IMG/VR virus record: IMGVR_UViG_3300027759_000080
Coordinates: 3,874 to 67,873 of that record
DNA: 64,000 nucleotides
From: a virus
Reading direction: 5' to 3' (one strand)
Shown in pieces: positions 17,978 through 28,437 of the stretch; positions within the stretch are counted from its first letter, which is position 1, and the number at the start of each line of letters is the position of its first letter. A model generated the notes under the pieces. That model saw only the letters and a program-made list of their open reading frames with translations, had not been told where the DNA came from and ran no database searches. The position numbers were made by a program, and so were the translations under genes.

Positions 17978-18162
17978 ATTTTTTTATTATTTTTTTAACT
18001 GTTGCCAATAGAATTTATCTAGCTCTAACTTGTTAACCACCTCTATGTCGTTCTCGTTGCAGTAATGGATAGCCTTCTGAATACTAGTGAACCTAACACT
18101 CTCTCCCTTACCGACAGGAAATGTTAAACATGATACACCGTTGGTTGATAATTTAACTTTCA

Positions 18163-18369
18163 TTATCCAATTCCTCCTATACTCTTTTTAGGGCTCTCTA
18201 ATAGCTTAACTTTCATTCTATCTGATATGAATAACACTTGTCTATCTAAAGGGCTTAAATCAACGTAAAAATCTGCCGTATGGCTAACCATTGGCTTAGG
18301 ATATTCTGCTCTCAAGATATCACTAGCTACTTTCAACTGTTCTGATGTTGCAAATTTAATCATTCTCAT
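18163..18369 (-). CDS. Hypothetical protein
   Basis: 68 aa ORF. Confidence 0.5.
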   Translation of the reverse strand: MRMIKFATSEQLKVASDILRAEYPKPMVSHTADFYVDLSPLDRQVLFISDRMKVKLLESPKKSIGGIG

Positions 18370-18526
18370 ATAATTTAATTATTAATTTTTTGACTTGTTT
18401 CTTGAATTCTTCGTGGTGCTTGGTTCTCACACTTATTGTCACCCCTTTGACCTCGAACCCGAAGCCCTTGCGCCCCGAGTTCTCTCTTTTACCACCCCAA
18501 CTACCTTTGCTCTTATTTATTTCCAT
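18356..18526 (-). CDS. Small basic putative DNA-binding protein (56 aa), not in ORF track
   Basis: 'WGGKRENSGRK' motif. Confidence 0.65.
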   Translation of the reverse strand: MEINKSKGSWGGKRENSGRKGFGFEVKGVTISVRTKHHEEFKKQVKKLIIKLYEND

Positions 18527-18789
18527 TACGATACTTTGTCTTTAAAATATTCTGATACTTTATAAAATGCGGTCTCAAACTCTTCTTCAGTGCTCACCTC
18601 CCAATTACCATGCAAGGCAACATTTACTGACACCTCGGTAATACTATTATTACCAAACTTTGATTGGCACACTTGAATAACCTCACCTTCACTTATTATT
18701 TTGTAAAAATGAATAGCACTATTCCTTACATACATTGGGAGACTCATCTCAACCATTTCCGTTACTGTTTTTCTTATTTCTACTTTCAT
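18526..18789 (-). CDS. Hypothetical protein
   Basis: 87 aa coupled ORF. Confidence 0.6.
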   Translation of the reverse strand: MKVEIRKTVTEMVEMSLPMYVRNSAIHFYKIISEGEVIQVCQSKFGNNSITEVSVNVALHGNWEVSTEEEFETAFYKVSEYFKDKVS

Positions 18790-18796
18790 ATTGTTA

Positions 18797-19027
18797 TTAT
18801 TGTTTTAAACTGATTAAATTATCCTCGTACCATCCGTACCACATATTAAAACTATCTTGGATGAAGTCCTTGTATACTAGGAGTTCGGTATCATCCTCAG
18901 ATATCTGATACATATTACCCTCCTCGTCTTCTAGAACATCCCTTAGCTCATCAAATGTTCTAGCATGGGCAAGTTCACAAGCCACTTCCATCACACTTAT
19001 TGTTATTAATTTATCTGCTGATTCCAT
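18797..19027 (-). CDS. Hypothetical acidic protein
   Basis: 76 aa ORF. Confidence 0.6.
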   Translation of the reverse strand: MESADKLITISVMEVACELAHARTFDELRDVLEDEEGNMYQISEDDTELLVYKDFIQDSFNMWYGWYEDNLISLKQ

Positions 19028-19120
19028 TATTTATTATTATCGTTAATTGTTTTGATTAATGTTCCTACCATAACCGCTAGGATTATGAATAGGCTAAACT
19101 TAATTATTTCTTCCACAATA

Positions 19121-19324
19121 CTATTCTATTGTATGTATTCTACTTGAGTCAGGAACTTCAGTGGCAAACAACTTGTTGTCACACCTTCTGAATAGTTCGT
19201 CATAACTAAACTCGTATTCTTTCATCCTCTTGATATCTTCTTCACTTTTAGCATAGAAGAATTGTGTTCCCATGTAGTCTCCATTGCAAATATGAACGAC
19301 TGCGAATAATTTATTATTTTCCAT
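19121..19324 (-). CDS. Hypothetical protein
   Basis: 67 aa ORF, A-rich leader. Confidence 0.55.
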   Translation of the reverse strand: MENNKLFAVVHICNGDYMGTQFFYAKSEEDIKRMKEYEFSYDELFRRCDNKLFATEVPDSSRIHTIE

Positions 19325-19356
19325 ATTATTTATTTCTCCTTTTTTTTATTATTTTA

Positions 19357-19800
19357 TTAAATTGTTGATGGTGTTCTTTGAGCTAGTTTGTCGCACTCTT
19401 CTTTGGTTATAAATCCATACCTACAAAAAGAATGCATGATAGAGTAGTTAGTGTGGAATATCATATCCATCCCACATCCACTTATTGTAAAGTAGCCATA
19501 ACTATTTTTGCTTTCTTTGTACCCTAGGGCTCTGAATAGGCACGAATAATTTCTTTGGTAGTATTCGTTATCGTTGTATGCGTATTTCTCACAACTAGTA
19601 AACTTAATCTTTCTACTCATGCCACTTGAAGACACCGACCCGATTACGTTAATCATCCTATTTTCTCTGACTGCCTTAACGTATGCCTCTGCATCAGATA
19701 TAAAAGTATCTACACTGTAGTAAGGCACGTTGTTTATGTCCTTAACTAAAGAAGTGTCAGACATAATTTTTTCTTTGATTTTTTCAATTTGATTTTCCAT
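19357..19800 (-). CDS. Phage hypothetical protein
   Basis: 'VSSSGMSR', 'GCGMDM' motifs. Confidence 0.65.
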   Translation of the reverse strand: MENQIEKIKEKIMSDTSLVKDINNVPYYSVDTFISDAEAYVKAVRENRMINVIGSVSSSGMSRKIKFTSCEKYAYNDNEYYQRNYSCLFRALGYKESKNSYGYFTISGCGMDMIFHTNYSIMHSFCRYGFITKEECDKLAQRTPSTI

Positions 19801-19974
19801 GTGTTTTTTTTGTTGTTTTTTTTTAAACTAGTTCCTCAATAATTCCTATAACTTCACTTGCTACTAATACCGAGACTGCTATCTCAATATCTACTACCAA
19901 TAGTATGTAACCTACTATTCTTATTACTGATTTAAATAGGCTTATTTGTAAGTGCCTCTTTGCGTTTGGATGAT

Positions 19975-20160
19975 TCATATTTTTTCTCCTTTTTCTTTTA
20001 TTAAATAAATGTTGTTTTCTTCTATCCACTCATCGACTATTCTCTCTGATTCGTCTCTGCATGAACCCATTTCTCCTAGTCCAAAGTCCTCGTTGGACAT
20101 CAGTGTTTCGTATATTTTATATACTAAACTGTTGTAACTTTTTTGCGTTATTGTATCCAT
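19975..20160 (-). CDS. Hypothetical protein
   Basis: 61 aa ORF. Confidence 0.5.
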   Translation of the reverse strand: MDTITQKSYNSLVYKIYETLMSNEDFGLGEMGSCRDESERIVDEWIEENNIYLIKEKGEKI

Positions 20161-20168
20161 ACTTTCTA

Positions 20169-20978
20169 CTATAATTTTGGTTCTAAATCTTTGTTTACTT
20201 TACTAAATGGCAGTGCTGATATTAACTCACTGTATCCCACCTCTACTAGCTCCTCAATAAAGTCAGTGCCTAGTAAGATTGACTTTGCCCTAGCCTCATC
20301 AGACAATACCTTTAAGTAGCCATAGTCCAAGTCAATGTCATCGACATTGTCTCTGATTAACTTGATTCTATCATCACTACCTAGCTCCTCGATATCAATG
20401 TAGTTTATGGTAGCAAATTCATCTATACAAACATTGCTAATCACGTCTTCATAAAAATCATGCTCACTTAAATCCTCATTTACTAAGGCAAAGTCTAGTA
20501 TAGTACCTAGTACATGACCATCTTTATCTAGCACACTGAAATTTAAGGTGTTTTCAGCCCATTCTATTGCGTTATTAGGATAGAATGATATAAAGCCATC
20601 CCTAGAGGTGTATCTTTGTTTTAAATAGCTATTAAAAGCATCGTAATTACTATGTATGTACGAGACAATGTTGTCTACTATAGGAATAATCTCGACATCT
20701 ATAGAATCATTCACAAAGTTATAGTAGTTAGGAGATGTAATGTGTTGATATGTTATTGACTCAATTAAGCCTAGCTCAACTAACTTACTCTCTATCTCAG
20801 ATGTTATTGACACTGCTATTTTGTGCCTATAGCCTAGCCAATCTACTTCTACCTCATCTGAGGAAACCTCGTTGTATTCACAAAAACTTTCTAGCTCACT
20901 GTCTCCATCCCATATTGTACAGTAGAACCCCTTGAACAATGGCAACCATGTATAGATTGCTTTAGCTTGACTATCCAT
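20169..20978 (-). CDS. Acidic hypothetical protein
   Basis: 269 aa; 'SPNYYNF..D', 'TSRDGFISFY'. Confidence 0.65.
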   Translation of the reverse strand: MDSQAKAIYTWLPLFKGFYCTIWDGDSELESFCEYNEVSSDEVEVDWLGYRHKIAVSITSEIESKLVELGLIESITYQHITSPNYYNFVNDSIDVEIIPIVDNIVSYIHSNYDAFNSYLKQRYTSRDGFISFYPNNAIEWAENTLNFSVLDKDGHVLGTILDFALVNEDLSEHDFYEDVISNVCIDEFATINYIDIEELGSDDRIKLIRDNVDDIDLDYGYLKVLSDEARAKSILLGTDFIEELVEVGYSELISALPFSKVNKDLEPKL

Positions 20979-21366
20979 ATACCACCTCCCCTAAAACTAT
21001 GTACTGAAAAACAACATCACTACTACTAGCATCTCCATCTTCCTTTAGCTCATTCTCTAGAGCCCAAGCATCAGAACTGTTAGCTAGTAGCTCTAACCTT
21101 TCAATTAACGTATCTCTAGTGATTACTCCTAGCACTTCTTCCTCATCCTCGGCATCGTTTATCTCCACCTCTACTCCATGCTCTAGGACTGCCTCTAAAA
21201 TGGCTGATGCAATGTAAGGATTACTTGACTTGGGCACTGCTTGTCTTACCTTCTGAACTTGCTCATCGGTTATGTAGTACCAATAGTTACTTCCACCTTC
21301 TAAGGCAGTGGTAAAGATGTTATCTAAAACATCCTTGCTGATTTTTCTTTTGATTGTAATTTCCAT
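20971..21366 (-). CDS. Acidic hypothetical protein
   Basis: 'ALEGGSNYW...DA...D...Q...GEVVYG'. Confidence 0.65.
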   Translation of the reverse strand: MEITIKRKISKDVLDNIFTTALEGGSNYWYYITDEQVQKVRQAVPKSSNPYIASAILEAVLEHGVEVEINDAEDEEEVLGVITRDTLIERLELLANSSDAWALENELKEDGDASSSDVVFQYIVLGEVVYG

Positions 21367-21395
21367 GATTATTTATCTCCTATTTTTTATTTAAA

Positions 21396-21983
21396 TTATG
21401 ATTTTAAGTCCCAAGCAAGTGATTCATTACTATTTAAATCACAAGCAATCTCTATGTTGTTTAAGTGTGTTATTGCAGTATCACACTGAATAGTTGGCTT
21501 GTTAAATATGTCGAATGCATTGATATTAATAAAATCTCTTATAAATACTTGGTCTTCTAGGATAAGTCCTAATCTATATTTTAAAGACTCATTCTCTACT
21601 CTTAAAATGTATCCTAACTGCGAAAGCATTTGGTCTTCCATGTTTAGATTCTTAATAATAAACTCCATGGTTTCGCCATCGATGTCTATAGTCTTTAACT
21701 CATCAATTGCATTGTGCACAATATCCCTAACTCGTTTGTCATCCATGATGTATGTGCCACTCTTTAAGAACTTTTGCCTAGCTTGATAGTCTTTATAGAA
21801 TAACTGCATACACTCTAGTTCATGCATTGTATCTACATTAAACTTGCTCTCTAGGAATAGGTTGTAGACTTTAACTGCCTCGTCCCACATGATGTCTAGC
21901 TCTCTATCGTTAATGCCAATGATGTGTGCCATACAAAATACACGATAGTAAAACTCTTGGTTTTTAATTTGATTGTTTGTCAT
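21396..21983 (-). CDS. Hypothetical protein
   Basis: 195 aa with repeated leader. Confidence 0.6.
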   Translation of the reverse strand: MTNNQIKNQEFYYRVFCMAHIIGINDRELDIMWDEAVKVYNLFLESKFNVDTMHELECMQLFYKDYQARQKFLKSGTYIMDDKRVRDIVHNAIDELKTIDIDGETMEFIIKNLNMEDQMLSQLGYILRVENESLKYRLGLILEDQVFIRDFININAFDIFNKPTIQCDTAITHLNNIEIACDLNSNESLAWDLKS

Positions 21984-22019
21984 AATGATTGATTGTTTTT
22001 TTTAAATTGTGATTGATTA
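21981..22019 (-). repeat. ~39-bp repeated translation-initiation leader (copy at 22245-22284)
   Basis: TAATCAATCACAATTT-A8/9-CAATCAATCATTATG in both. Confidence 0.85.
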
Positions 22020-22247
22020 ATTAATTTCTTCCTCAACTATGATATCATCAACGTAACAATTTACATTGTATTTGCCAATGTTTAAATGGTCAATGATAGC
22101 TTGAATTTGGGAGCAGTCGTCTTCTGCGCTCCATCCCTTGCCTAGAACAATTTCTGCTACATCCTCTAGATTGTTGCCATTCACGAATGCGTAAGTTGAA
22201 AAGTAATTACCTTCGATTGATTTTTTAATTTGATTTTTTGATTTCAT
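22017..22247 (-). CDS. Hypothetical protein
   Basis: Start moved to MKSKNQIK after the repeated leader. Confidence 0.6.
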   Translation of the reverse strand: MKSKNQIKKSIEGNYFSTYAFVNGNNLEDVAEIVLGKGWSAEDDCSQIQAIIDHLNIGKYNVNCYVDDIIVEEEIN

Positions 22248-22302
22248 AATGATTGATTGTTTTTTTTTAAATTGTGATTGATTAGTTATTATTAATTGTT
22301 TG

Positions 22303-22348
22303 AACATATGAGGGGAATCGAACCCCTCACTAGAACCATTTTTATGCT
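22303..22348 (-). ncRNA. tRNA-half-like T-loop element, copy 1
   Basis: AGCATA-AAAATGGTTCTAG-TGAGGGG TTCGATT CCCCTCA-TATGTT. Confidence 0.7.
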
Positions 22349-23249
22349 ATGCAAATGTGAATATTTTATTATCCACAGTATTCTCGGTAACAAACTTCAT
22401 TACCTCATCGAATGCTATGTTATTCATGCGATAACCACCACCACTAACTAGGTAATGTAACTTATCATTCTCATCCTTTGGCGCACTAACGTGGTTTGTG
22501 TAACGTGTAACGGCATTAAATAATCCCCATATAGTCTTACCTTCCAAATTAATTTCAGTTTGTAAGGAATCAGCAAAAGCGGTCACTTGATTTAGCTTTC
22601 TACTGCTTACATCTTTCTTATTAGTGTTAACATCAATAGTGAATAGTTTTCTTATCACACGTTCCACCATCTCATCCTTTAGCTCGATGTCAGCCATCTT
22701 CTTGAAGTTACCCATCAATACTTCATCTAGATGCAAAGCCTTTCTTAAATCAGCCATGGCAGTCTCAATTCTACTCTTTGCTGATTCAGTGTGACGGAAC
22801 TTATCTAAATCTTTGTATGCACGATGGAAAGTATTTTTGCATACTACTACTTGACTAGTTGACCCGAATCCGATTGATGCACTGCCATCATTAGAATTCA
22901 AGGCAGTAATCCATCTCATGATAGATGACTTCCCGATGTACATACTAGGTAAAGCGGCTTGTAAGTATACCTTCTTACCTCCATCTAGTTCACCTCCTCT
23001 AGTAGTCTCTAAACCGATGCCCTCGGTAGCTCCTACGATGGTTTCTGCTAACTCCCAATTCTGCATTGGCACATAACGATTACCTACACTTCCTAACCAT
23101 GCATCAGTATCGTTTCTGAAGATACCAAATGTCTCGGTGTTTTTACCATCTTTAGCAAATAACTCTTCTTTGCTTACTGACCAATTTAAATTAGTGCTTT
23201 CTAATAAATTAAAAGTCTTTTCTTGGATTGATTGATTGTTGTTTTTCAT
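22347..23249 (-). CDS. DUF932-like phage/plasmid protein
   Basis: 'LNWSV', 'LGSVGNRYVPMQN', 'NSNDGS', 'VVCKNT', 'WGLFNAVT.Y..H'. Confidence 0.8.
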   Translation of the reverse strand: MKNNNQSIQEKTFNLLESTNLNWSVSKEELFAKDGKNTETFGIFRNDTDAWLGSVGNRYVPMQNWELAETIVGATEGIGLETTRGGELDGGKKVYLQAALPSMYIGKSSIMRWITALNSNDGSASIGFGSTSQVVVCKNTFHRAYKDLDKFRHTESAKSRIETAMADLRKALHLDEVLMGNFKKMADIELKDEMVERVIRKLFTIDVNTNKKDVSSRKLNQVTAFADSLQTEINLEGKTIWGLFNAVTRYTNHVSAPKDENDKLHYLVSGGGYRMNNIAFDEVMKFVTENTVDNKIFTFA

Positions 23250-23267
23250 GATTTTTGTTATTTAATT

Positions 23268-23324
23268 GTTTAAGACAAGGCTTTTTAAACCTTGTTTCGA
23301 TTATTTAAATCTCGTCAGTTAAAC
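23268..23324 (-). ncRNA. Type I hammerhead ribozyme
   Basis: GTTTAA CTGACGA GATT-TAAAT-AATC GAAA CAAGG-loop-CCTTG TC TTAAAC; all core nucleotides and three stems. Confidence 0.9.
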
Positions 23325-23485
23325 TATTGTACATTGTCTCGATAATAGTTAGCTATGCTTATTACTTCCAATGCTAACTGCTCGTTAGACATCTTTGCCA
23401 AGCTAACTACATCTTGTACTGTTTCGAATTCGTCAGATGCCAAATCCATGATGGCATCAATTAATTTTTCTCTGATTGTTTCCAT
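23324..23485 (-). CDS. Small hypothetical protein (53 aa), not in ORF track
   Basis: METIREKLIDAIMDLASDEF...; stop abuts hammerhead. Confidence 0.6.
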   Translation of the reverse strand: METIREKLIDAIMDLASDEFETVQDVVSLAKMSNEQLALEVISIANYYRDNVQ

Positions 23486-23490
23486 GGTGT

Positions 23491-23778
23491 TTATATGCTT
23501 TTTAAATCTTTGTGATACTTATATAAAATTGCTTCGCTTGAATCGTAGCTAAGATGTGTGGCATCCTTATTTATCCTATCTCTTGATGATGGATAGTCAT
23601 CTTCTCTTTTAATGCTTCTAATAGCATTACGCATATCCTTTTTTGCATCTGCTACACTGCTATAATTTAGCCAAATGCAATTGAACATCCCATCCTTTTT
23701 ACTTTCGTAATTTGACATCTTTGATAGTATCTTGAAGTTACCACCGATTTGACCCGTAATTAAAATTTGTGCTCTCAT
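23491..23778 (-). CDS. Hypothetical protein
   Basis: 95 aa ORF. Confidence 0.6.
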   Translation of the reverse strand: MRAQILITGQIGGNFKILSKMSNYESKKDGMFNCIWLNYSSVADAKKDMRNAIRSIKREDDYPSSRDRINKDATHLSYDSSEAILYKYHKDLKSI

Positions 23779-23947
23779 GATTTAATTGTCTCCTATTTTA
23801 ATAATTGAATAATAACCATCAATGAATTCATTGTTACATGAATCGAATTGATAGTACTCTTGTACTCTTGCTTGTGCCAATTCCAATGTAGGAAATGCGC
23901 TGATAATACTGCCATTTGCAGTGTTTTGAATGATGTAATTTGTCATG

Positions 23948-24277
23948 CTATTTAATTGATTTTTTAGGTTTGATAAAATATGCTCCGTTTGGACTGTAGA
24001 CTTCGTAATTCATAGCATCTGCTATTCTAGTTAAATCTAGCAGTCTCTGAGCAATCTGCTGAGGAAGAAATGAGTACTTCGTACCTACATTCCACTGCTC
24101 TTTTTTACTGCTCTGCTCCTCTAGGCATTTGTACTTATTGAATTGCCATTCCAATTCACATTTTAATTCTCTAGCATTCTCGCAGTCATTTATTATACGT
24201 TCTGCAAACTTTGTTGATGCCAATGATGGACTGTTTTTTAATCTTAAGAAAGATTCCTTTTGAGTGATTGTTTTCAT
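23948..24277 (-). CDS. Hypothetical protein
   Basis: 109 aa with CAATCAATCA leader. Confidence 0.6.
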   Translation of the reverse strand: MKTITQKESFLRLKNSPSLASTKFAERIINDCENARELKCELEWQFNKYKCLEEQSSKKEQWNVGTKYSFLPQQIAQRLLDLTRIADAMNYEVYSPNGAYFIKPKKSIK

Positions 24278-24315
24278 GTTGATTGATTGTTTTTTTTAGT
24301 GATTAATTAATTGAT

Positions 24316-24603
24316 TTATTGTGAGCACAAGTCCCATGACTCTAGCTCGTTTACTCTTTTAACATTTAAGCCTAATTCCTTATAAATAAAATTAGCTAAT
24401 TTAGTATTACCTACAGTGCCTTCAGCTATCTGATTTGTGCCTATAGATGCTACAACGTCTGAAGTGCTCATGCCTAATATTCTACTGCAAAATTTAACAT
24501 CTTGCCCTAAGAAGAATTGTTTGACATATTTTTTGTTTCTGACTACTAATGACCAATTATGACAAAAGCCATATTCCGTTGTGATTAAGATTGTTTTCTT
24601 CAT
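24316..24603 (-). CDS. Hypothetical protein
   Basis: 'FFLGQDVKFCSRILG'. Confidence 0.6.
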   Translation of the reverse strand: MKKTILITTEYGFCHNWSLVVRNKKYVKQFFLGQDVKFCSRILGMSTSDVVASIGTNQIAEGTVGNTKLANFIYKELGLNVKRVNELESWDLCSQ

Positions 24604-24627
24604 GATATTTATTTATTTAATTGTTTG

Positions 24628-24671
24628 AGCATAGCATGGGAATCGAACCCATGCCTTGAACCATTTATGCT
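24628..24671 (-). ncRNA. tRNA-half-like T-loop element, copy 2
   Basis: AGCATA-AATGGTTCAAG-GCATGGG TTCGATT CCCATGC-TATGCT. Confidence 0.7.
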
Positions 24672-25081
24672 AGTGTTTGCTTATTCTTTACTTCTATTAT
24701 AAACTGCGAATTAACATAAGAGACGTGCTCTTTTATGATTTTAGGAAGATGTTTGATATCGAATTCTTGATAGTTGTGAAAATTACCTTCGTAATTGCCA
24801 TCACAAGCAGTAATTACACCATAATTATTTAGCACTCTAAACGATTTTATATGTCTATAGCTTTGATAATTGCCATAGTCACTAGTATTAACGCATATGG
24901 TAATATCCTTGAATTTCTTTTTAGATACTTTCACTGCATTCTTAAACGATTCTAGTATGTCATCTGCATCTATCAGATAACTGCTAGTTGTGAATAGCAT
25001 ATCAACTATTCTGACTACTGAAGTAGTGTTTCTATCAATCTCAGATTCGATTTCGATAGTAATTTTGATTGTTTTTTCCAT
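24665..25081 (-). CDS. Hypothetical protein
   Basis: 138 aa ORF. Confidence 0.6.
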   Translation of the reverse strand: MEKTIKITIEIESEIDRNTTSVVRIVDMLFTTSSYLIDADDILESFKNAVKVSKKKFKDITICVNTSDYGNYQSYRHIKSFRVLNNYGVITACDGNYEGNFHNYQEFDIKHLPKIIKEHVSYVNSQFIIEVKNKQTLA

Positions 25082-25085
25082 GTGA

Positions 25086-25211
25086 TTAGTGATTAATTAA
25101 GATTGTTGATAAAATAACGATTGTAAAGAAAGCAGTCATACCAATTAACTGCAAACTAGCTTGTTTTCTCATTTTTGATGCCCATGGGCAATTCTTTGAT
25201 TGTTTTTTCAT
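25086..25211 (-). CDS. 41-aa membrane peptide, not in ORF track
   Basis: MKKQSKNCPW...GMTAFFTIVILSTILINH; typical leader. Confidence 0.55.
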   Translation of the reverse strand: MKKQSKNCPWASKMRKQASLQLIGMTAFFTIVILSTILINH

Positions 25212-25244
25212 GTGATTGATTGGTTTTTTAAATGTGATAATTGA

Positions 25245-25568
25245 TTAATATCTGCCTATGTTACCGATGTAATGGAAATGACTAGAAGTAGTAACTTTAT
25301 AACCTAATTTATTAGCTACATAGTAACAAGCATCTCTTAAGCGCTTGATATCATTGGTATCTTTGCTATATAATTCACCTAAATACCATTGTTGGTATAA
25401 ATCACCTCGGTTAATCTGCTTTTCTATGGTTTGAGCGAAGTTTAACTCCCAACATATAGTTTGCTTGATGTCTCGTAGTGTTTCGCAGTCCTTAAATACC
25501 ATTCTAACTCTTGGATTCATTGGGAATTCTGCTTGTAATTCTGCTAATAATTGATTTTTAGTTTTCAT
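25245..25568 (-). CDS. First gene of early operon, hypothetical
   Basis: Start moved to MKTKNQLL after repeated leader. Confidence 0.6.
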   Translation of the reverse strand: MKTKNQLLAELQAEFPMNPRVRMVFKDCETLRDIKQTICWELNFAQTIEKQINRGDLYQQWYLGELYSKDTNDIKRLRDACYYVANKLGYKVTTSSHFHYIGNIGRY

Positions 25569-25597
25569 AATGATTGATTGGTTTTTTATGTGATTGG

Positions 25598-25647
25598 TTA
25601 GCCAATAGATGAATCGACATCTGATGAATTCCAAATTAATTGGCTAA
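25598..25647 (-). ncRNA. tRNA-half-like element, divergent copy 3
   Basis: TTAGCCAAT-linker-AGATG TCGATT CATCT-ATTGGCTAA then CCA. Confidence 0.5.
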
Positions 25648-25954
25648 TATATTTTATTAATGGTCAAAATAAGTTTATTGTTAGTAAACTTATAAAAACA
25701 TCATGGTATATCCCCTCCATGATAGGTTTATTCGATTGATTCGTAGTCTATTATACGATATCAGTATCTGTTTTCAACTGTATTTCAGTGTTTATTGGTT
25801 TAGAGTCGTAAATGATTCACATTATATAGATTCGGCAATGTTTCACAACAAACTAACTATATAAAACTACTCAATGATTAGTATCTTTATACATATACAT
25901 ACTAATTGACTAAAAGAACGATATTTTCGAGAATTTTTCGGCTTGAAAACATTG

Positions 25955-25984
25955 GCAATATACGAGCACATTTTATAAATGCAA
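25955..25984 (-). promoter_or_regulatory. Candidate early promoter TTG-N19-TATATTGC
   Basis: Near-consensus -7 box with correct spacing. Confidence 0.5.
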
Positions 25985-26023
25985 GCACTAATCAAGATGA
26001 AATTATAATTATTTTTCAAGTGA

Positions 26024-26653
26024 TTGATTATCAAGATGATTATTTTTAGTATAATTCAAGATAATAATGCAAGTGAATGATAATGAGGGGAATAAAATAT
26101 ACTGCTGATAATCAATGATATAGCAAGTAGTATTCAAGAATGAAAACTAAATAGCTGAAAATGAGCACTATAAGTTAATAAACTGAATGTGAGATGTTTA
26201 CATTACTGAAAATGAGCACAAAATATAAAGATATTAGGCTAAAAAATCACTAAGGATAAAAGGATAATTATAATGCTTACTGATAAGAATAATAACATCT
26301 ATAGTAACGGAATATTTATGATGACCATGTTTAACATTAGATAGGAATGCATAAGGCAATTCACAGTCTTTAGCTATTCGATAGTATGTAATGCCTTTAC
26401 TAACACATAGTGAGTCTATCCATCGAATGAATAGCAAATGTGCCTTTAAACGATTGGCATTCCGTATTTCATATGTAGTATTATCGTTTTTGATGTGCAA
26501 TGATAAGGATATTTTGACGTTATTAGTCATTTAAAGGGCTAAAAAAACTATGCTCTCAAAAACTTGTCTCCATCCCATGAGCAATTGGCATTTTGCATCT
26601 TATAATCAGCAAGTTATATTTTGAAGATGATTTTGTAAATAGCTGATTATCAT
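26024..26653. repeat. Cluster of degenerate palindromes (C/T)TGA-N3-T(C/G)A(A/G)
   Basis: Copies at 26024, 26077, 26105, 26155, 26183, 26206, 26599, 26643. Confidence 0.65.
26234..26530 (-). CDS. XRE/Cro-like HTH regulator
   Basis: 'GITYYRIAKDCELPYAFLSNVKHG...TIDVIILIS'. Confidence 0.65.
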   Translation of the reverse strand: MTNNVKISLSLHIKNDNTTYEIRNANRLKAHLLFIRWIDSLCVSKGITYYRIAKDCELPYAFLSNVKHGHHKYSVTIDVIILISKHYNYPFILSDFLA

Positions 26654-26984
26654 TCAACCATTTCATTGAGTCTTCGAGGATTGTATGCTAGTATTATTTA
26701 CCCATGTGAAACGTTCGTTTCTGATAGTACAAAGCAAGGCAGTAAGCAATATGTTTATGCCTATTGCCTATTGGCTTTGCTCAGTTTCTTTGGTTTCTAT
26801 TTACCAAATATTTATAAATTATATGTTGGATGTCATCGTAATACCTTTTAAATCAATGTGGTGGCAATGGTTCTCATGGGGTGGCGGATGTTTTTTTGAG
26901 CGACTCGGTGATGGCTTTTATTATGGTTACCGCACATTTTCACCGCCATACCTTCTTTGCACGACCTCCTTGCCGACCACCAAT

Positions 26985-27031
26985 AAAAAAAACCCCACCG
27001 CCCTAGTTATCAGGGGGTGGGGCTATTTTTT
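26985..27031 (-). terminator. GC-rich, probably bidirectional terminator
   Basis: A8-CCCCACC.CCCT-loop-AGGGGGTGGGG-T run after resolvase stop. Confidence 0.65.
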
Positions 27032-27055
27032 AAAAAATGGGGTGGTATGCGAACG

Positions 27056-27751
27056 CTAGTGAGCGTACTTGTATATAGACTTCAACGATAGCGATATGCC
27101 GTTCTCTAGCAGCCTCCTTTGTATCTCTGCCTTTGGAACATTATTCTGGCTGTACGCTTTGATTAGTTCTATACCTACGTTTGACTTCTTGACGTACACT
27201 CTTTTCTTGGCTATCTCTGCCATTAGTATTTTAGCTTTATTTGGGTCTTGCATTTCAGGATTGCCTAGCGAGCTGATTATGCGTCCGTTCTTTGTTACAT
27301 GGAATCCGTTCTTCTGTATACGAACCTTGATTGAGTTTAGTCCTGCTGCTGTTCTCTCTGATATCATTACTCTCTCTCTTTCTGCCATAGAGCCGAACAG
27401 GTGGATTGAGAAGTTGTCCATCTCTGGTGCATCAGCACACTTGAATTGTACCTTACTATCCATTAGGTTTGCTATGAAACTAATGCTACGAGACAGTCTA
27501 TCTAACTTTGCCACGAGTAGTATTGCCTTCTTCTCCTTGCACAAATTTATTGCCTCTCTTAATTTAGGTCTATCGCTCTTCTTTCCTGACTCAATTTCAG
27601 TAAATGTTGCTACTACTATCCCCTTGTTTGTGATTGGTAATACCATTTGTTCTTGTGCCTCTAGTCCTAGTCCGCTATTGGCTTGCTTGTCTGTTGATAC
27701 CCTGAAGTATGTGACGTAATTGTTGGTAGTTGTACTCATTTTCAGTTCCAT
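27056..27751 (-). CDS. Small serine recombinase (resolvase/invertase)
   Basis: 'YFRVST..Q', 'ESGK', 'VAKLDRLSR', 'ERERVMISERT', C-terminal HTH. Confidence 0.92.
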   Translation of the reverse strand: MELKMSTTTNNYVTYFRVSTDKQANSGLGLEAQEQMVLPITNKGIVVATFTEIESGKKSDRPKLREAINLCKEKKAILLVAKLDRLSRSISFIANLMDSKVQFKCADAPEMDNFSIHLFGSMAERERVMISERTAAGLNSIKVRIQKNGFHVTKNGRIISSLGNPEMQDPNKAKILMAEIAKKRVYVKKSNVGIELIKAYSQNNVPKAEIQRRLLENGISLSLKSIYKYAH

Positions 27752-28437
27752 TTTTGATTATACATTTTTCTCATATTCTCAAGCAGTTGCTCTTGGGTTT
27801 TTATGTACCCCATATCTATAGCGAATGCAAGCTTACCTTCTATTGTCTTCAACTCTTCCAATTGTTTAGCAGTAGCTAAGTTTCTTAAACCTGTTTCGTG
27901 TTTGTTAAATACTATCCAATTAAGTCCTTTTGCTATTGATATATAATCAGGATTGTTAAATCTAGTTATCGCCTTTGACAGGTCTCTGTAAAAATTACCT
28001 GCCTCAATCCTGTTTATAATTAGCGAGTCTGTCAACCATCCTATAACCTCTGCCTTAAATATAGGATTTAAGTCCATGGCTACCATAACAAAGATGTACG
28101 GATTTACCCATACTGCTCTTGTATCTCTAGCTCCAGTTGTCTTATAAACTCCTAGTGTCTTCATGTACTTTGCAAAGCCCTGTTTTTCAATGTTCTCTAT
28201 AAAACTACACATAGGTATTTTTATAACGCCTTGCTTCTCAAGTAAGTAATAAAGAACTTCTATATTGTCTGTCATTATCCTTGCTACATTCTTTTCTACC
28301 CAGCCGTTTTTTACCCTAGATACTGTGTAGGCTTCTTGAAGGTCTGACAAACTAAGAAAACCTTTTTGAGTTTGCTGCCTGATTTTAGTTCCGAATAGAT
28401 TTCTATCTTCCGAAATGATTATTATGTTTGACTTCAT
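27742..28437 (-). CDS. KilA-N domain protein
   Basis: 'IRQQTQKGFLSLSDL', 'WVNPYIFV..A..LNP.FK'; start ATG 28437 after TACATTTG (28443-28450). Confidence 0.7.
   Translation of the reverse strand: MKSNIIIISEDRNLFGTKIRQQTQKGFLSLSDLQEAYTVSRVKNGWVEKNVARIMTDNIEVLYYLLEKQGVIKIPMCSFIENIEKQGFAKYMKTLGVYKTTGARDTRAVWVNPYIFVMVAMDLNPIFKAEVIGWLTDSLIINRIEAGNFYRDLSKAITRFNNPDYISIAKGLNWIVFNKHETGLRNLATAKQLEELKTIEGKLAFAIDMGYIKTQEQLLENMRKMYNQKWN

Follow-up and report, generated by a model that had tools for sequence, protein, structure and literature searches.

A hammerhead ribozyme and tRNA-like minihelices replace one another at a gene junction of a phage operon and may punctuate its transcript

What keeps self-cleaving ribozymes in bacteria and phages is a standing question, and a review states that their purpose there needs more work (PMC6765202). 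The question returns in a 64-kb stretch of DNA (hereafter the window; G+C content about 34%) from the 67.9-kb IMG/VR virus record IMGVR_UViG_3300027759_000080, rated 94% complete by CheckV, where the gene junctions of a leftward operon hold both a hammerhead ribozyme and two copies of a structure that we call the transfer RNA (tRNA)-like minihelix (TLM). What would a self-cleaving ribozyme and a tRNA mimic have to offer in common between the cistrons of one operon? An original prediction from the letters of this DNA had taken a hammerhead and three T-loop elements for interchangeable modules that would cut the message into separate, stabilised and individually tuned units. We show here that hammerhead and TLM replace each other at an orthologous junction in relatives of this phage, and we regard it as probable that the hammerhead and the two TLMs are interchangeable RNA-processing punctuation between cistrons of the leftward operon. 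The three elements are (nt, nucleotides):

23268-23324, minus strand: type I hammerhead ribozyme, with the scissile bond predicted between C 23274 and U 23273 and a 24-nt leader to the ATG at 23249 of the DUF932 gene.
22301-22349, minus strand: TLM copy 1, with the acceptor 5' strand at 22348-22343, the AAAUGGUU linker, the T-arm, the acceptor 3' strand at 22308-22303 and an unpaired C at 22302.
24625-24673, minus strand: TLM copy 2, built like copy 1, with the acceptor 3' strand at 24633-24628, an unpaired C at 24627 and a 23-nt leader to the ATG at 24603.

Read from 23324 to 23268, the hammerhead runs through stem I, CUGACGA, a stem II of 4 base pairs (bp), GAAA, an 8-9-bp stem III, GUC and the return strand of stem I (GUUUAA/UUAAAC). 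The type I core (CUGANGA...GAAA, an A15.1-U16.1 pair and an NUH triplet) is complete, with CUGACGA, GAAA and GUC in place, and the predicted fold recovers all three stems, of which only stem I is open. R2, our own type I hammerhead model built from the phage hammerheads of a pattern scan, scores the element at 68.4 bits (E 2e-14), its only good match in the 64 kb (the next reaches 14.7 bits, E 0.5), which bears out the hammerhead originally predicted at 23268-23324. The pattern scan of viral contigs gave 30 loci with 24 distinct sequences, in which 98.9% of the alignment cells are paired and three pairs in stem II and three in stem III are changed on both sides; stem I is invariant among them because the search pattern fixed it. 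Most of these phage hammerheads end 10-30 nt ahead of the next ATG, as judged from the printed flanks. From its sequence, we infer that the window hammerhead is active.

TLM copies 1 and 2 share a build of about 47 nt and two helices: a 5-7-bp acceptor-like stem, AAAUGGUU with a few further bases, and a 6-8-bp stem closed by G-C around a UUCGAUU loop. The return strand of the outer stem adjoins the inner stem without a gap, so that the acceptor-like stem stacks directly on the T-stem in one continuous 13-bp helix, followed by one unpaired base and AAACAATTAA. Both copies carry the T-arm consensus GGTTCRANYCC, and the exact string GGTTCGATTCC occurs twice in the window, at 22314-22324 in copy 1 and 24639-24649 in copy 2, a count reached in none of 100 shuffles. 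Our own TLM model, R1, finds the same two places (22301-22349, E 1e-5; 24625-24673, E 4e-6), with any other match in the window at E 3 or above. A canonical tRNA, with a cloverleaf, D-arm and anticodon arm, is ruled out by the presence of two helices only and by the lack of any Rfam tRNA match in the window; ARAGORN likewise calls no tRNA gene in the window or in five relatives.

The minihelix is not peculiar to this phage. A 17-base pattern, AAATGGTT-N9-11-GTTCGAYTC, occurs at 71 viral loci, and 34 distinct sequences (two of them from the window) have an inner stem of at least 6 bp; their source contigs range from 26 to 66% G+C, and across this range the UUCGAUU loop and the AAAUGGUU linker are invariant. 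For covariation we used 19 sequences from different viral contigs that share one alignment register and were picked for pairing. Here 96.8% of cells are paired, against at most 53% with the partners slid, a figure that is inflated because the rows were chosen for pairing, which we count as a caution against our own reading; the informative part is the covariation, with 11 of 13 pairs changed on both sides, in both helices, and a covariation score reached by none of 500 shuffles. At E<=0.01, R1 finds 50 matches in 899 kb of fetched loci and passes 40 of the 71 viral pattern loci, compared with 4 of 80 cellular-genome loci having the same 17-base pattern (the 80 searched out of 120 stretches); in the cellular pattern loci searched, R2 finds no hammerhead. 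Rfam at its gathering scores matches nothing in the window, nor in 144 kb of 20 TLM-bearing loci. The TLM is thus a virus-enriched RNA absent from Rfam, common in viral contigs and rare in cellular genomes.

Past the helix, most copies continue as N-C-(A/U)-A-A, with C in second place in 30 of 41. As a separate observation, 11 of 41 distinct TLMs, by a count made by eye, have CAAUUAA(A) no more than about 12 nt beyond the minihelix; they come from the window family and from L049, L052, L073, L028 and L032, hence also from phages unrelated to that of the window. The string may act as a leader or a translation signal, or form part of a nuclease site.

The elements sit on the coding strand of their junctions in a stereotyped way. 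As had been predicted, the hammerhead and TLM copies 1 and 2 begin at or overlap the upstream stop codon: stem I of the hammerhead includes the G of TAG 23326-23324, the acceptor strand of copy 1 includes the AG of TAG 22349-22347, and TAA 24667-24665 lies inside copy 2, with the preceding two codons in the acceptor strand. The same AAACAATTAA was said to follow all three, and does: the window has four copies where 0.94 are expected, a number attained by 2 of 100 shuffles, and three of the four stand directly behind elements. The predicted A-rich leaders that a cut would leave measure 24 nt after the hammerhead, 23 nt after TLM copy 2 and 54 nt after TLM copy 1. By comparison ACAATTAA is only mildly enriched in the window, with 14 occurrences against 8.4 expected. 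The three copies behind elements are:

22292-22301, minus strand: AAACAATTAA directly past TLM copy 1, forming the 3' boundary of the swapped cassette described below.
23262-23271, minus strand: AAACAATTAA past the hammerhead, its first four bases being the end of stem I.
24617-24626, minus strand: AAACAATTAA directly past TLM copy 2.

Similar placement is found across the class. For this count we used 44 TLM hits: from the 50 at E<=0.01 we dropped six identical duplicates and one partial hit, and we added one hit in L077 (E 0.07). A same-strand stop codon is overlapped by the TLM or lies at most 10 nt from its start in 24 of the 44, and an ATG-started open reading frame (ORF) begins at most 60 nt downstream in 27; two TLMs lie inside a same-strand ORF and four inside a short opposite-strand one.

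The fourth AAACAATTAA of the window, at 19043-19052, was considered as a further element and rejected: it is inside a 29-codon ORF whose frame is kept among relatives (by eye), and its fold has a z of -0.5 against shuffles. This unlisted ORF (19027-19116, minus strand) starts with GTG, or with ATG in the relative L065, and encodes a hydrophobic core. It takes up the 93 nt left between two genes and shares one base with the following ATG.

Four of the genes that flank the three elements are as follows (aa, amino acids):

22347-23249, minus strand: DUF932 gene, 300 aa (PF06067, E 8e-30), with the hammerhead upstream and TLM copy 1 downstream; the anchor for comparing relatives.
23324-23485, minus strand: 53-aa gene, ending in a TAG stop that runs into stem I of the hammerhead.
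24665-25081, minus strand: 138-aa gene, whose final two codons and TAA stop lie within TLM copy 2.
24316-24603, minus strand: 95-aa gene, downstream of TLM copy 2.

Ten contigs from IMG/VR and JGI metagenomes, the window included, encode a DUF932 protein 96-98% identical, and it is behind the stop codon of this gene that the exchange is seen. Five of the ten have a TLM there (the window, L005/L065, L006/L025, L109 and L110) and five a type I hammerhead (L003/L040, L004/L042, L007/L018, L108 and L111). In the alignment the homology of the flanks ends with the stop codon and resumes at AAACAATT or (U/C)AAACAAUU, and only the element in between is exchanged, the limits of the replaced segment being exact from stop codon to AAACAATT. 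The original prediction of a swap between hammerheads and T-loop elements at orthologous junctions is therefore borne out at this junction. DNA contigs of this phage group occur in lake and subsurface habitats. Those of sequencing run X3, taken like the contigs of the other runs at 80% likeness or more (depth and uncovered parts being uninformative), end at 22347, and the letters beyond read as the start of the hammerhead form. Single changes within the elements also suit an RNA under selection, as far as the letters go: a stem I G-U becomes G-C in L111, and in L006 and L109 a TAG to TAA change converts a G-U of the acceptor stem to A-U. Farther afield, L077, an unrelated phage with Shine-Dalgarno leaders, carries four such elements on the same strand, one hammerhead and three TLMs, all placed between small ORFs, and L081, L090, L099 and L105, all fetched by the hammerhead pattern, hold TLMs as well.

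Two further arrangements among these contigs are recorded for their own sake. In L094 (6777-8505), and likewise in L101 and L104, four type I hammerheads lie within 1.7 kb on one strand between small ORFs, one of them scoring much lower (42 bits). In L065, 13729-13868 on the plus strand hold a tRNA-like element of 140 nt (acceptor stem of 7 bp, canonical GGTTCGAATCC T-arm, insertions of 36 and 53 nt), which reaches 29.4 bits with the Rfam tRNA model (gathering score 29) and receives no call from ARAGORN; it sits behind the ortholog of the window's 224-aa gene, a junction at which the window has nothing alike, and may be a larger cousin or precursor of the minihelices.

These data support a model in which the hammerhead would cut itself after C 23274, while the TLM, by imitating the acceptor/T-arm top half and the elbow of a tRNA, would most likely be cut by a host tRNA-processing endonuclease. 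The tRNA elbow serves ribonuclease (RNase) P, RNase Z and the CCA-adding enzyme as a handle, and by analogy the UUCGAUU loop and the GG of the linker may form an elbow that host enzymes can grip. We favour a cut on the 3' side, past the unpaired base that follows the helix, as RNase Z makes in tRNA precursors lacking an encoded CCA; it would mirror the 3'-edge cut of the type I hammerhead. The products would be alike either way, the upstream message retaining its stop codon and a compact 3' structure and the downstream message beginning with a short A-rich leader. Since the upstream cistron keeps its stop only with a 3'-edge cut, as in the type I hammerhead, the TLM cut would by analogy fall after the unpaired base; a 5'-side cut by RNase P is a possible alternative.

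Several observations weigh against this model. Both Rfam hammerhead families score the window element below their gathering thresholds, Hammerhead_1 (RF00163) at 29.7 bits against 34 (E 2e-4, 5 kb) and RAGATH-1-hammerhead (RF03152) at 36.9 against 56.3, and its stem I is just 6 bp long with no tertiary contact identified. The TLM helix has 13 bp compared with 12 in tRNA, and there is neither a D-stem nor an anticodon arm; if the cut were on the 5' side, it would cost the upstream gene its stop codon and, in copy 2, the last two codons too. The ten swap contigs may include repeated samples of one phage, and no sequencing run listed for this stretch is on record as RNA. Finally, the elements are dispensable, because a hammerhead is missing altogether from L006/L025, where an additional 84-aa gene precedes DUF932; in L111 the hammerhead stands upstream of that additional gene. 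The originally proposed scheme of interchangeable cutting modules thus keeps its interchangeability, through the DUF932 swap and a second, looser swap in the leader, but its third copy falls outside the family and its elements are optional.

The optional character of the elements also serves the first alternative, in which the TLM is an uncut, stable structure that blocks 3' exonucleases, insulates cistrons from translational coupling or binds a tRNA-binding protein, sharing with an uncleaved hammerhead body only the role of a compact structure behind a stop codon. More distant relatives fill the slot with something simpler: L112-L114 (DUF932 63% identical) have a 9-10-bp bulged hairpin followed by an A-rich leader, with no T-loop, hammerhead or U-run, and L008 and L115 (45-46% identical) have a terminator-like hairpin, forms for which a role as 3' structure alone would do just as well and which count against processing. 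A plain hairpin, however, would need neither the invariant UUCGAUU loop nor the AAAUGGUU linker, both parts of a tRNA elbow and both held constant across contigs of 26-66% G+C, and the element with which the TLM is swapped is a self-cleaving ribozyme, whose whole point is cutting. We consider this alternative unlikely.

Less likely again, and in our view improbable, is that the TLM is a decoy or hijacking site for the CCA-adding enzyme, for T-arm modification enzymes or for a tRNA-targeting defence nuclease, with a purpose other than cutting the message. Such a role would account for a virus-enriched motif whose conserved parts are those of the tRNA elbow, and for a tail, N-C-(A/U)-A-A with C mostly second, that recalls NCCA. 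It leaves unexplained the replacement of the TLM by a hammerhead with exact boundaries and its sense-oriented placement between stop and start codons; moreover, nucleases directed at the anticodon would find no target in an element without an anticodon arm.

The exactness of the boundaries invites a reading at the level of DNA, in which the elements are boundary sequences or small selfish inserts where gene cassettes recombine and their RNA folds are incidental or serve the spread of the insert. Mosaic breakpoints do match element borders: the exchange at the DUF932 junction is bounded precisely by the stop codon and AAACAATT; one X3 contig, lacking the 53-aa gene, joins 23324 to 23503, a joint that begins exactly at the 5' edge of the hammerhead; and in L007 the TLM ahead of the 95-aa gene is kept although the gene upstream differs. 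Judging from these contigs, gene cassettes seem to come and go at element borders. Against a role in DNA, the helices are preserved by compensatory changes and G-U pairs, which are functional in RNA and not in DNA, every copy is oriented in the sense of its flanking genes, and no integrase lies beside the elements, the sole recombinase found being a resolvase that lies upstream of copy 2 by about 2.4 kb and of copy 3 by about 1.4 kb. We give this reading slightly less credence than the decoy. As for decayed tRNA remnants or chance matches without function, phage genomes do carry tRNA genes and fragments, and copy 3 looks degenerate enough for this to be possible there, but for copies 1 and 2 the notion is close to refuted by the two GGTTCGATTCC matches that no shuffle reproduces, by covarying stems, by a non-tRNA linker kept in unrelated phages and by consistent junction placement, and we regard it as very improbable overall.

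The third T-loop element of the original prediction lies farther upstream, in the leader of the operon:

25595-25647, minus strand: copy 3, with a 9-bp outer stem (25647-25639 with 25606-25598), a 5-bp inner hairpin and a 6-nt UCGAUU loop, then CCA.

While the claim of T-loop elements held for copies 1 and 2, copy 3 is missed by R1 (E>10) and its UCGAUU loop departs from the T-arm consensus. When viral contigs were scanned with a 14-base pattern, the 119 stretches and 118 pattern matches obtained included no relative of it outside the phage family of the window, and because its outer stem with this architecture is confined to that family, covariation is not available for it. By the model, copy 3 is not a TLM member; it is a possible variant, a family-specific hairpin within a hairpin. 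In L065 the whole leader that corresponds to 25913-25600 of the window is replaced, and the replacement ends in a putative type III hammerhead directly before the shared ...AAUCACAU... and the first gene. Its parts, in order, are one strand of stem III, GUA, stem I as a hairpin of 6 bp, CUGAUGA, stem II (4 bp), GAAA and the return strand of stem III. Rfam Hammerhead_3 (RF00008) has no match to it at E<=10 (in a search that left L111 aside), for which reason the call rests on a descriptor scan and its shuffled controls: across 1 Mb of loci, the L065 element is the only one returned (three hits, one sequence), against one hit in five shuffled sets. Contigs of sequencing runs X2 and X4 have the same leader replacement, from 25596 and 25587 to 25913, with 217 and 227 other letters between.

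The cut of a type III hammerhead falls at the 5' edge of the ribozyme, and the pairing of the L065 element with the CCA-followed copy 3 is suggestive, although it is one case and involves a putative element. A broader proposal, which we put forward only tentatively and hold to be somewhat doubtful, is that the 47-nt tRNA-elbow minihelix is an enzyme-dependent twin of the hammerhead in many phage lineages, sorted by geometry: the CCA-less form would correspond to type I, both with a 3'-edge, RNase Z-like cut, and a CCA-ending leader variant to type III, both with a 5'-edge, RNase P-like cut. If this were true, bacterial viruses would have a counterpart of mitochondrial tRNA punctuation, and the long-unexplained phage hammerheads would gain a defined job, the separation of cistrons, which a host nuclease can perform equally well.

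Known systems offer partial parallels. In the tRNA-punctuation model of mitochondria, tRNA-like structures mark mRNA processing sites, and in the mascRNA and MEN-beta modules a tRNA mimic lies within a long transcript and cuts by RNase P and RNase Z define the flanking RNA ends. The latter differ from the TLM in being eukaryotic and nuclear, with a full cloverleaf-like fold, and in occurring at a single locus instead of as repeated punctuation. Closer in shape are the tRNA-like domain of transfer-messenger RNA (tmRNA) and the minihelix model substrates of RNase P, in which the acceptor stem is set on the T-arm and a short G-containing strand replaces the D-arm. The Rfam tmRNA model, though, matches just 18 nt of the T-arm of the TLM (15.2 bits against a gathering score of 47), the TLM has no 3' CCA, mRNA-like part or pseudoknots, unlike tmRNA, and ARAGORN finds no tmRNA in the window.

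Plant mitochondrial t-elements, tRNA-like structures taken to direct RNase Z and/or RNase P cuts of mRNAs, come close in function; as described there, a conserved GGTTCRANYCC T-arm lies at mRNA ends, the released element can bear non-encoded C/A additions, and stop-less mRNA ends are tolerated in these organelles (Forner et al. 2007, PMC1920247). On that description, the TLM resembles them as a non-canonical tRNA-like structure with the same T-arm near mRNA junctions, whereas t-elements are organellar, mostly fuller cloverleaf remnants, with ends mapped by experiment, and the TLM, known here from its sequence, is a uniform 47-nt minihelix with a conserved linker of its own, found in phages of bacteria and exchangeable with a ribozyme.

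Gene-flanking phage hammerheads are themselves already published (PMC3088659; review PMC6765202). The body of the former describes prophage hammerheads that flank genes, with tandem arrangements cutting transcripts of about 2 kb in vitro, proposes that hammerheads process long phage RNAs to gene-length mRNAs, and reports an archaeal-virus hammerhead that precedes a start codon by 13 nt and has a 5' end mapped close to it (Perreault et al. 2011, PMC3088659). The clustered phage hammerheads in that account are likewise of type I and lie between genes of phage transcripts; its main text presents no tRNA-like partner and no element exchange ('tRNA' appears once, in a reference title), and its supplementary alignments might list hammerheads of the present group. 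Our search, to which most subscription journals and supplements were outside, found no published account of a phage minihelix class or of its exchange with hammerheads, and a 2026 preprint on noncoding RNA clusters contains 'tRNA-like', 'minihelix' and 'T-loop' zero times; the VIPR preprints, as far as their search listing goes, show no connection with this operon. The natural exchange of a hammerhead for a tRNA mimic at one junction amounts to a genetic argument that the cut or the resulting end matters, and not ribozyme chemistry itself. A further outcome is a structured RNA, widespread and virus-enriched, that Rfam lacks and phage annotation pipelines pass over, and if the proposed processing works, the TLM could serve synthetic operons as a compact signal driven by host enzymes.

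The elements belong to a run of small, tightly packed same-strand ORFs that occupies the minus strand from about 26 to 13 kb. Apart from DUF932, Pfam matches include a resolvase and a helix-turn-helix (HTH) protein just upstream of the series and, farther down the operon, a DnaA-C HTH protein and a YqaJ-like nuclease; the small flanking proteins have no PHROGs or Pfam family except DUF932/phrog_1221 and phrog_37559, and blastn finds no phage GenBank record with likeness to 20000-27900. The remaining features of the series are:

22017-22247, minus strand: gene downstream of TLM copy 1, with ATG 22247, common to relatives, as the likely start.
25245-25568, minus strand: 107-aa gene, the first past the long leader, downstream of copy 3.
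25750-25777, minus strand: best sigma-70-like promoter match in the leader, TTGAAA-16-TATAAT, 11/12, a consensus match only.

The ORF list starts the first of these genes at an in-frame ATG 20 codons farther upstream (22307), inside the 3' strand of TLM copy 1; ATG 22247 is the likelier start because hammerhead-bearing relatives lack ATG 22307. The promoter and terminator scans report nothing beyond consensus matches (51 sites against 43.8 expected). The G+C-rich hairpin followed by a U-run that marks an intrinsic terminator is missing at every element, and the two terminator-like sites in 18000-27000 (2.7 expected) are both located elsewhere. It is plausible from the sequence, with the best promoter-like sites in the leader and the junctions free of terminator-like sites, that the region is a single transcript. 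A second sigma-70-type match in the leader, 10/12, lies upstream of copy 3 at 25821-25848 on the minus strand. The Bacteroidota-type -7 motif, TAnnTTTG, does not occur in intergenic DNA between 27549 and 20721; it precedes several genes elsewhere.

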